Source: TPA_inf: Saccharomyces (lineage: Eukaryota). Taken from it: DNA of 64,000 bases. Shown in pieces: positions 43,892-62,300 of this stretch. The notes beneath the pieces were generated by a model. It worked only from the letters and a program-made list of their open reading frames with translations. It had not been told where the DNA came from and did no database searches. The stretch spans positions 704,001 to 768,000 of the forward strand of contig BK006946.2 of NCBI GenBank assembly GCA_000146045.2, given 5' to 3'. Numbering within the stretch: position 1 is the first letter of the stretch; every line of letters starts with the position of its first letter. The position numbers were made by a program, and so were the translations under genes.

Positions 43892-43963
43892 CACTCACGA
43901 TGGGGGTCGAACCCATAATCTTCTGATTAGAAGTCAGACGCGTTGCCATTACGCCACGCGAGC
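43892..43963 (-). tRNA. tRNA-Arg, anticodon UCU, 72 nt, no intron
   Basis: The minus-strand sequence GCTCGCGTGGCGTAATGGCAACGCGTCTGACTTCTAATCAGAAGATTATGGGTTCGACCCCCATCGTGAGTG folds as a cloverleaf. The acceptor stem is GCTCGCG/CGTGAGT with G-U pairs, the anticodon loop is CT-TCT-AA, and the T-arm is GGTTCGACCCC (B box). Confidence 0.9.
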
Positions 43964-57891: not shown

Positions 57892-58087
57892 AGGAAGACA
57901 TAGTTTTTTACTTTCCCCCCTGCCCTTCATAAACACTACGTTTCATTTTCTAAGAGCATCAATTTGCAAACACCTGAACTACTTGCACAATACATAGTTT
58001 CTTCTCCTACAGATACAGTTAATAATTAATAAATAACATTACACATAAACATGTTTAAGTTTCATTTCAGCAAGACAAGATTGACAT

Positions 58088-59091
58088 TATTAAGCGTGAT
58101 CTAAACTATGAATTTCTCCCGGGTATGAAACTACATTCTACTATTGATTTTAATAGATGAGCGATTAAACGGGATATTTGAATTTATGACTTCTGTAAAC
58201 CATCGAATGCCCCAACTTTTAGTAATCAAACATGCACCGAAAACAACCATATCAATCAATGTCTTGCTTCATTCTTGATTTCTCATCTCTTTCTTTCCTT
58301 CGTAATTTCACCTTCTCCCTCCGCTCCTTTTATCGAAGAAACATCGTATTACAATTAACAACGCATTGCACTATAGTACACCAAGTTTGAAAATAAAAAC
58401 CTCGCCCACGTTCATTTATGCAACAAGAAAAAAACTCCCATCACAGTTAGAAAGCAATGAATAAAAGCCATGCGTAATAAATACATTCAGAGAGGATGAC
58501 GATAAAAAAAGAAAAGAAATCACGAGGAGAGTAAACCAATATAAAAAGAACAAATTCAAAAAATTTTCTTATAATAAACCTTAACATGGAGTTTCCGTTA
58601 ACACACTATATGGAAGCGAAACGTGTGAATCAACAGAATCAACCACAGCATATCATAAACCTGAACATAGACACGACTGAAAAACTCAAACGTGCTATAC
58701 CGCCAAGCAGAAAATCCATTTGCTCCTACTTTATTTTCTACGTCTCCTTGCAATCTCCGTTCCATTTTATCATCCTCCCTCAAACTGAACACACCCCTCC
58801 ACCAGGATTAATTCATAGCTTCCGTCATGCTACCTGAATATTTTAGGGTCCGGTCACTTAAAAATGAACGCGTTCATAGCAAGGCACATATATCCAAAGT
58901 TAAAATGAACAAAGTGCATCGCATAGTTGTATATGCAATACAATCAAATTTCCTCAAATAAAAAGAACAATTGAGAGAATGAAAAAGGAAGAAAAGAGTG
59001 ATAATTTGAGAAAAAAATAGCTAAACAAAACGATAAATGATTTTGATTGAAATATTTCGGTGCAGTCCTTTTCCGAAAATTGGGGACATTC
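58088..59091 (+). ncRNA. Candidate position of the long (~1 kb) H/ACA snoRNA snR86; boundaries and strand are approximate
   Basis: From memory, snR86 (about 1004 nt) lies in the FAA4-YMR247C intergenic region. This 1.45 kb gap has no credible ORF. On the plus strand there is a small hairpin (TTTCGG...CCGAAA) followed by ACA at 59086-59088 and then 3 nt, which resembles an H/ACA 3' end. Counting 1004 nt upstream gives about 58088. This is not validated structurally. Confidence 0.35.
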
Positions 59092-59350
59092 AATAGAATT
59101 TCATCAATGGTTATCCCTCTTTTAGTAGCTAAAAACTGAAAACAAGGCCTGAACTAAAAACCATTCTTCTTTCAAGTTCGATTTTTATCCTGAAAAAATC
59201 CTGAAGAGAAAAAATTTCCAGAATATCCGGGTGATGGGCTGGATTGGCAAGGTATAGGGCTGGATTGTATAATTTGTAAGAGAGCACAATAATAAAAGGA
59301 ACTTTGTTTAAAAAATGTAGTACATTTATATGAAATTTATATGCGATAGT

Positions 59351-62300
59351 CTACCTTCTAAATGGAATTTCACTACGGCATAATGGACATGTATTGTTAC
59401 CCGATGATCGAAACCACTTGTAAAGACATGCTCCGTGGAACTTATTTTTACAAGTCGGACATGTCTTCGAAGGTAGTTTCCTATCCACGGCATGTAGTAT
59501 AGAGTAACATATGGCACATTCCTCGAAACCAGAAAATTGTAAGTGCACATTTTTAGTAAACAACTCCAACGAATCCAAAACGGATCCATTCATGCCTGTA
59601 ATTACATGTTGTGTAGACATTATCCATTGTTTCCATTTTTGTTCACTTATACCAACTCTAGAGACGCCATTAACTTGGATATTTGTTAAAGGGTAGTTTT
59701 TTGGTAGTTTGAAGGAAATCTCCAACTTTTGGTCGTCAATCAAATAGCTTGCCTTCACTTCATTAGTAATATTATTTAATTTAATAGTCAAAGCATCATC
59801 ATTAGAAGTCAGGCGGTCCATCTTAGAATTGATATCGTCAAATTCATTTTTGATCAAAATTGGGGAGATGAACTCTGAGACAAACTTTTCAATATCATTT
59901 TGTAATGTCCTATCTTTTATATTTAACCACCAAATACTCGTTAGACAACCGACGTTGTTAAACAACTGATAAAGTGTATGGCCCAAAAGTTTTTTACATT
60001 CTTCAAATATGTCTTCTTTATAAGGAGAGAAATTATTGCCGACAATGTTGTATTCCGAAATTTCCTTGGTGTCGACCTGTTTCCAAAACTCAGTATCTCT
60101 TAAATCTATTTGATCTGTTATGAAATCAAACATTCTATTGATTAAACCAGCTTCCTTTAATTGTTCAATAAATATTTGTCTCATATTATAAGACGTATCT
60201 TTGAAGTACATCAGTATCAAGTGCCAATACCATAGATATTTAATAAATGAATTTTTATTCTCGTATTCAAGGTATTCTTTTGGCACCTCATCAGTAACTT
60301 TTTGTAATAATTTTTGAGGTAGTTTAAATTTTGAGTTTACATCATTATCAGATGCACTACCATCTACGTCTGAGCCAGTTTGTTTTTGAATCCTCAGTTC
60401 ATACTCAATTATAATATCCTGCTGTGTTTTTACCACCAAAGAACCCAACAAAGTAGTTAATAATCTTGATTGATTAATATTACTACCGATATCCTTATCA
60501 TTCAATACAACCTCGAATATTCTTTTGTATTGAGATTCTAACTTTTTGAGTTCCATTGAGGAAATGACCTTGTACAATTTCTGGTAGAAGAGTGTGGATA
60601 CTTGGTTATTTCTTTCTTGATTAAAGTTGAGAAACATCAGTTCAATCAAATTTTCTTGAATTTCATCACCATATTCTGAGATTTCCTCGCCATTTTTGGA
60701 AACGCCTTGCGACAATGTTTCATATAAGTTCAAACAGGAAGAGCGAAGTTCTAACAAATATAAAGTGTCATCAATTTGACACATCGATAGAGAGTCTGCC
60801 AGCAACCTTTCCGAAAGTTCAAAAGCTGTTATGCCCATATCTCTGACTCCTTCAAACCTCATCAGTTTGGTGAAAAAATCTAGTAGTAACAATCTAACGG
60901 TGCTAAAGCTAGGCTCGTAGGCAAGATCACTATCCAACCATTTTAGTATTGAACGGAATATCATGTTCAGTCTCTGCGGTGCTATAGGAACAAACTGTTT
61001 ATCTGCCTGTGGGATATCCAGCAGATTATTTAAAAGAGCTAACGACTTGAATTCTTGATCGACAAGTTCTACTTCTCTAATCCCAATCAATTGAGATGCC
61101 AGCAATGTCCTTAATTTCGTTATCTCATCTTTTGAGTTGGACCTGTTAAACATCAATAGTAATATAGCACATAGGAGATAATCTTTATCAGTAGATTTTT
61201 GATCCCTCACAGTTTTCGTGACAAAACTTTCAACCGATGCTAATAGCCCATTTAATGTGGTGGATGAAACAGTATCAATGCTGTTCAATAGAACCTTATA
61301 TAATACTCTTGAATAATAAAAAAAGTAGACAGAATTACTTTCAGCAATATCAAAAGTAAGCATAGCATCACCACCATTAGCAGGCTGAATAACGTTTCCA
61401 ACAATATCAGAAAAGTTCAAATTTACTTTGCCATGTTTGAAAAAGGTATGCCCAAAATCATAGTAAAGATCATTTGGTTCCTCTGAAAGGCAATTATAAT
61501 CAGTGACGAGCTCAGAAACTACAGTTATAAATGCAACAATATGGTTATTAACGCGCTCTGGAAGAGCATCAAGTAGGGCATCTAAGAATAGAGCATACCT
61601 GATGAGCTTTTGCATATTTTTTAAATTGATAGGCTTATCATCTGTAAGGAGCAAATGCGTGTTAGTACTTAAGCTGCTCACTAAGGATGACCTATAATCA
61701 ATTGCTGGCATATATCTGGCAAAAACTTCGATTGCGTTAGCGGGAAAAAAAATCTGAGAAGTATCGTTGCAGCCATTAATTAGCTCCACGGCGTGTGTGA
61801 CATATTTTTCTTTTGCCCCGGGGCTGAAATAAACCTGAGCATGTTGCAAAATCACTTGGGCCAACTTATTAGCGATTTCAGAATTCCCTTTAGCCAACTG
61901 TAATGACAACTTGAATAGTTTCTCATTAGTGTCTTCTGAAACTTCATACAATGCACAAGAAAGAAAATCGGTATTCAGCAATAACGTTGAAAAAAAAGTT
62001 TCATCTAATTTAGACAAAACAGCACAAAATTGTTCAACTTGGCCATTGGCAACTGCGCTTCGGTAAAGTGTGGTGATAGTCCTTTGATTTAAAAATTTAT
62101 TATTACCTTTAAATATTTCCCCACTGTCGTCAAACTTATAATTTTTCATAAAGTCTTCAATGTACAATTCTAATTCTAGGGAATCTGATTTCATTAATTG
62201 TTGATAAATATCATTGTCCAACTCATTCATTGTGGCTAAAATTATTGTCTTTGGTAAGTTAAAAGAAAGCGCAACGATAAAAAAGTCTTCCAACGAAGTA

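Follow-up and report, generated by a model that had tools for sequence, protein, structure and literature searches.

SNR86, a minus-strand gene for a 1-kb box H/ACA snoRNA, in the gap between FAA4 and RKR1 of Saccharomyces cerevisiae

The gap between the convergent FAA4-like and RKR1 open reading frames almost certainly holds SNR86, the gene for the box H/ACA snoRNA snR86. It is encoded on the minus strand, is probably transcribed from a promoter of its own, runs from position 59113 to position 58110 and is 1004 nt in length. All positions refer to the window, i.e. the whole stretch of 64,000 nucleotides that was analysed. The RNA is already known: it is annotated, has an Rfam family of its own, and has been the subject of experimental work. 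The value of the present check is one of calibration: the initial annotation named the locus correctly, while the sequence clues it gave point to the wrong strand.

The gap spans positions 57892–59350. On the plus strand it is preceded by the stop codon (57891) of a 694-aa AMP-binding ORF, whose FAA4-like product is classified by Pfam as an AMP-binding acyl-CoA synthetase, and on the minus strand the RKR1 ORF, encoding a listerin/Ltn1-type RING ligase (Pfam), stops at 59351. Exact-protein look-up found the FAA4 protein in chromosome-sized S. cerevisiae contigs, flanked there by the same genes. The measured length of 1459 bp agrees with the roughly 1.45 kb given earlier. The gap had also been described as lying between two convergent 3′ ends. 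This holds for the flanking protein genes, but RKR1 and snR86 are arranged in tandem, both on the minus strand and with RKR1 237 bp upstream, so that the gap is not merely a place where two 3′ ends abut. Open reading frames within it reach at most 83 aa (58586–58837, plus strand, ATG-initiated), followed by 64, 52 and 52 aa; the single weak 83-aa ORF mentioned in the initial annotation is indeed the longest. Elsewhere in the window, a tRNA-Arg gene with anticodon UCU is found at 43892–43963 on the minus strand (Rfam, 67.5 bits, in agreement with ARAGORN); it is unrelated to snR86.

Scanning the whole window against Rfam gave a sole match to RF01272 (snR86), which extends end to end over model positions 1–1008 of 1008 and is located at 59113..58110 on the minus strand. 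Its score of 923.2 bits (E = 3.9e-251) exceeds the curated gathering score of 120 bits. Alignment of the known snR86 sequence had been proposed as the way of checking the locus, and this full-length alignment, combined with the published position on chromosome XIII, bears out the assignment of the gap to snR86. In the list of Freyhult et al. (PMC2551606), snR86 is candidate 11, a Crick-strand locus at chrXIII 762101<762294. With an offset of 704000 (11 × 64000), these coordinates translate into window positions 58101–58294 and overlap the 3′ portion of the Rfam match. The study further reports a positive Northern blot for this candidate, an RNA length of about 1000 nt, and good conservation across yeasts that is limited to the 3′ hairpin. 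It cites Torchet et al. 2005 (RNA 11:928) for the dependence of LSU Ψ2314 on snR86, and the modification table of PMC5699541 likewise assigns 25S Ψ2314 to snR86. The 1004-nt sequence recurs in five more S. cerevisiae contigs, three times identically and twice with one SNP. Family match, chromosome, strand, coordinates, target, and the length of about 1 kb all agree with S. cerevisiae snR86 (SNR86; RF01272); the gene in the window is snR86 itself, and the window copy shows no difference from it.

The strand can be fixed without recourse to Rfam. The 5′ domain of the RNA folds with −306.1 kcal/mol in the sense and −176.6 kcal/mol in the antisense orientation, an asymmetry that follows from the share of G–U among the 337 predicted pairs, which is 20%. 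This bears directly on the opposite reading, in which snR86 would be transcribed from the plus strand, end at a hairpin–ACA–TTC arrangement at 59086–59091, and be driven by a promoter near 58005–58030. The elements it builds on do exist in the sequence. There is a small plus-strand hairpin at 59055–59079, followed by ACA at 59086–59088 and by TTC, so the hairpin, the ACA and the three terminal nucleotides of the initial annotation were correctly seen; they are the antisense of snR86 nt 23–28, though, and play no role in the gene. As the plus strand of the gap contains 39 ACA triplets, the hairpin–ACA pattern is not distinctive either. The TATA-like sequence reported at 58005–58030 is a genuine AT-rich stretch, yet it lies 80–105 nt beyond the 3′ end of snR86 (about 115–140 nt past the FAA4 stop) and, being downstream of the gene, is no promoter for it. 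In addition, the RF01272 match is confined to the minus strand, folding of the plus-strand RNA is less favourable by 130 kcal/mol, snR86 is a Crick-strand gene according to the literature (PMC2551606), and the plus-strand ACA lacks a preceding pocket that could pair with rRNA. A plus-strand origin is hardly credible.

Read on the minus strand, the RNA has the hairpin–hinge–hairpin–tail layout of the family, in which nt 18–914 are paired in the 5′ hairpin, the hinge contains the H box, the 3′ hairpin occupies 58174–58117, and a tail of 7 nt follows. The hinge carries the H box ACAGAA (58191–58196, minus strand), which was read from the sequence and fits ANANNA; UUUACAGAA is conserved in the Rfam consensus. 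The 3′ guide hairpin (58117–58174, minus strand, 58 nt) starts with a lower stem UCCCG/CGGGA; UUUAAUC and UUCAUACC form the two sides of the pocket, above which an upper stem opens with the pairs G–U, C–G and U–A. Minimum free energy (MFE) and centroid folds as well as the Rfam structure support this hairpin, and the pocket is present in both the MFE and the centroid fold of 58196–58110 (z = −2.6; none of 200 shuffled sequences folds as well).

The pocket strands match the surroundings of a single target. Reverse-complemented, the LSU2314 flanks read CUCGUUAAUC (3′ flank) and UUCAUGCGCG (5′ flank) in Table S1 of PMC2551606. The 5′ guide element UUAAUC (58163–58168, minus strand) equals the last 6 nt of CUCGUUAAUC and pairs with 25S G2316–A2321, 3′ of the target, and the 3′ guide element UUCAU (58125–58129, minus strand) equals the first 5 nt of UUCAUGCGCG and pairs with A2309–A2313, 5′ of the target. 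Both strands meet the LSU2314 flanks directly beside the upper stem, giving 6 + 5 = 11 bp and leaving U2314 and the next base unpaired. Among 44 published pseudouridine sites in yeast rRNA, LSU2314 alone allows such two-sided pairing, the runners-up being one-sided. The initial annotation had suggested folding candidate hairpins and looking for an H box and a pocket complementary to 25S rRNA; ACAGAA and a pocket matching the flanks of U2314 are what such folding reveals on the minus strand. The bare motif TTAATC-N25-45-TTCAT is not enriched in the window, where it occurs twice against an expectation of 3.4. As this guide motif is not rare, the pocket is convincing only jointly with fold, boxes, spacing, and family match. 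At the 3′ end the Rfam consensus conserves CCCGUU..AUC, UUCA, CCGGG and GAAAUU; conservation of the pocket and the 3′ box is judged from this consensus and the statement in PMC2551606, while the one orthologue described below covers model positions 1–652.

In the proposed mechanism, the 3′-terminal 87 nt form a standard H/ACA guide unit made up of ACAGAA, the pocket hairpin, and a probable AAA box of the ANA type. Pairing of UUCAU with A2309–A2313 and of UUAAUC with G2316–A2321 would bracket U2314 of the 25S rRNA, which Cbf5, the pseudouridine synthase of the H/ACA snoRNP, would then turn into pseudouridine. As a separate observation, the upper stem of this hairpin contains AUAGUAGA at 58137–58144 (minus strand, nt 970–977), which is the complement of 25S 2342–2349, a flank common to Ψ2340 and Ψ2351; 8-mer matches of this kind occur at chance frequency.

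A literal ACA is absent from the 3′ end of snR86, where the tail reads CGGGA-G-AAA-UUC. The place of the ACA box is probably taken by the triplet AAA (58113–58115, minus strand), an ANA variant followed by the tail UUC, which is recognised by its spacing and by the conservation of GAAAUU in the Rfam consensus. Counted from the closing pair of the upper stem, where the 3′ pocket strand begins, its distance is 14 nt, within the 14–16 nt that separate the target position from the H or ACA box according to PMC6800473. Moreover, just 3 nt lie between it and the end of the RF01272 match, which is an annotated end rather than a mapped 3′ end. Three ANA triplets come into consideration: AGA at 58117–58115 (12 nt), AAA at 58115–58113 (14 nt), and AUA at 58109–58107 (20 nt, beyond the annotated end). 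Judged by spacing and annotated end, AAA is probably the box in use, and AGA and AUA fit less well. The history of computational detection is in line with such a variant. For Fisher, ANA boxes 13–16 nt from the ψ4 element had to be allowed, which AAA at 14 nt fits, and snR86 was detected only with the middle base of the box left free; snoGPS missed the RNA altogether (PMC2551606). A search for literal ACA would overlook the 3′ box of snR86. Every H/ACA feature that can be checked in the sequence is found in snR86 except the literal ACA box, for which AAA probably stands in.

The remainder of the RNA, nt 1–917 (58197–59113, minus strand), is predicted to form a single giant, irregular, rod-like hairpin with a three-way junction at its end. 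The MFE of this 5′ domain is −306.1 kcal/mol, compared to −215 ± 7.7 kcal/mol in dinucleotide shuffles (z = −11.9). Its 337 predicted pairs, 20% of them G–U, include 283 long-range nested pairs, with nt 18–914 forming the nested hairpin, and the consensus structure of RF01272 has the same nesting. An inverted-repeat search at the DNA level did not reveal the hairpin, because its formation depends on G–U pairs and bulges. Nor does the MFE fold of the 5′ domain contain a recognisable pocket adjoining the H box; the nucleotides 14–16 nt upstream sit inside the closing helix, which explains why none is apparent there. The 917-nt rod stands in for the usual 5′ hairpin of about 60 nt, with its sequence conserved only at the base and in an apex of about 150 nt.

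This distribution of conservation is taken from a partial orthologue. Two routes were followed in the search for further copies. A metagenome scan with the H box and the pocket as pattern returned three contigs, all of them S. cerevisiae copies with 0–1 differences, and provided no comparative information. With the RKR1 C-terminus as bait, syntenic loci were searched, and seven proteins were recovered, all of them fragmentary. One of these loci, L010 from a Logan assembly, has an RKR1 C-terminus that is 85% identical and carries a partial snR86 orthologue corresponding to model positions 1–652. In five others (L011, L012, L014, L015, and L016), the Rfam model found no snR86 downstream of RKR1, for which either a loss of synteny or short contigs that end too early may account. 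The RKR1 C-terminus of these five loci is 52–59% identical, and in several of them another ORF lies downstream. An orthologous 3′ hairpin was not recovered among the loci found.

Overall, L010 and the snR86 of the window are about 69% identical, and the identity is uneven. Pairwise MAFFT alignment classifies the predicted pairs as unchanged (63), preserved despite a change on one side (27), preserved with changes on both sides (8), or broken (33), but at 69% identity the alignment is unreliable in the low-complexity stems, and independent folds were relied on instead. Both sequences, folded separately, are predicted to form the long stem with the three-way apex (z = −6.1 for the L010 segment and −6.7 for the window segment). 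Within the first 25 nt of snR86, position 13 is the sole difference. The second conserved region is the apex itself, nt ~401–550 (58564–58713, minus strand), where two apical hairpins sit on a three-way junction, as delimited by identity to L010 and the independent folds. Here the identity amounts to 86–90%, whereas the flanking stem reaches 42–74%. Six S. cerevisiae copies differ by a single polymorphism, G793A (window position 58321; seen in L002 and L008), which replaces the predicted G–U pair with nt 144 by A–U. Together with the matching independent folds, G793A supports a structural constraint on the 5′ domain. A structural constraint was proposed by Torchet et al., according to PMC2551606.

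The 83-aa ORF at 58586–58837 invites a different explanation of the gap, namely that it encodes a small protein from this or a shorter ORF. The ORF does start with ATG, and it lies antisense to the apex, the most conserved part of snR86. L010 does not preserve it: across the 652 aligned nt no antisense ORF exceeds 35 aa, and the one of that length is found elsewhere. Conservation tracks RNA helices with wobble-type changes instead of codons. A small-protein gene therefore has next to no probability, and we return to snR86 as the product of the gap.

Searched alone against Rfam with E values up to 10, the apex retrieved snR86 itself and two matches at chance level only. A match of GUUUCGCU (58622, in the apex loop) to the complement of 25S 2352–2359 was considered and rejected as a chance-level 8-mer match: snR86 has 8 such matches to the 88 published flank complements, compared to 6.2 ± 3.1 in shuffles. 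In addition, both L010 and the Rfam consensus have A in place of its G, which speaks against pairing of GUUUCGCU with rRNA. Conceivably, the giant hairpin is more than neutral ballast and its apex at 58564–58713 is a separate functional module, e.g. one at which a protein or pre-ribosomal RNA docks, which would give snR86 a second role beyond Ψ2314; we regard this as a tentative and rather unlikely proposal.

Independent transcription of the gene is suggested by sequences upstream of it. A motif scan upstream identified the putative promoter elements AGCCCTA (59261–59255, −148), TCACCCG (59234–59228, −121), and ATAAAAA (59188–59182, −75), all within 59182–59261 on the minus strand. They resemble Tbf1, Reb1 and TATA-like sites, respectively; Tbf1 and Reb1 sites along with TATA-like elements are typical of yeast snoRNA promoters. 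L010 shows AACCCTA at −167, TTACCCG at −141, and ATAAAA at −86, in the same order as upstream of snR86 in the window. The distance between ARCCCTA and TYACCCG is 26–27 nt in both the window (59228–59261, minus strand) and L010 (2812–2844, plus strand), and the remaining spacer has diverged. From its sequence, the pair looks like a conserved promoter footprint. Downstream of the gene, putative Nrd1–Nab3 signals were detected by motif scan at 58039–58080 on the minus strand, comprising a tandem UCUUG-UCUUG (58080–58071, +30 to +39) and GUAA (58042–58039, +68). Two or more copies of UCUUG occur in merely 3.5% of 150-nt windows across the 64 kb, and GUAA and GUAG motifs come after the tandem. Such an arrangement is consistent with termination by Nrd1–Nab3–Sen1, which these motifs may serve to direct.

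Alternatively, snR86 could have no promoter of its own and be processed from transcripts that read through from RKR1. The tandem orientation and the short spacer of 237 bp are compatible with this, as is the placement of the consensus TATAAAT, whose sole occurrences, at −228 and −217, immediately follow the end of the RKR1 reading frame. Against it, the ARCCCTA/TYACCCG pair and ATAAAA have kept their order and spacing in L010 despite the diverged spacer, as would be expected of an independent snoRNA promoter. A cap-dependent pull-down, in which 5′-processed RNAs and Pol III RNAs are depleted, left snR86 undepleted, yet did not enrich it. On balance, processing from RKR1 read-through is improbable, and transcription of snR86 from its own promoter is the preferred reading.

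Functional counterparts of snR86 outside the Saccharomycetes have been described in "The fungal snoRNAome" (PMC5824354), where Neurospora crassa Nc_HACA_7 is listed as a distant and S. pombe AJ632008 (HACA_46) as a functional homologue; both are predicted to guide pseudouridylation of the corresponding LSU position. According to the same source, Nc_HACA_7 has a length of ~180 nt compared to ~1 kb for snR86, the guide element is located in the first hairpin of AJ632008 and in the second of snR86, and the 1-kb form (HACA_36) has been reported only from Saccharomycetes. Compared to the canonical H/ACA snoRNAs of about 150–250 nt, such as snR80 and snR82, snR86 is alike in its hairpin–hinge–hairpin–tail layout, in the ANANNA H box, in a pocket that leaves the target U and one base unpaired, and in the box distance of 14 nt. 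Conversely, the 5′ hairpin of the canonical RNAs is about 60 nt long, while that of snR86 measures 917 nt (about 15 times as much) and has no pocket beside the H box, and their 3′ box is ACA, while that of snR86 is probably AAA. Large non-guide domains attached to an H/ACA module are also found in yeast snR30 (~600 nt) and in vertebrate telomerase RNA. In snR30 the extra domain provides elements for 18S processing, and in telomerase RNA it contains the template as well as the pseudoknot. Likened on general grounds, snR86 shares with these two RNAs the combination of an H/ACA module and a large extra domain; unlike the 5′ domain of snR86, the extra domains of snR30 and telomerase RNA have a defined job.
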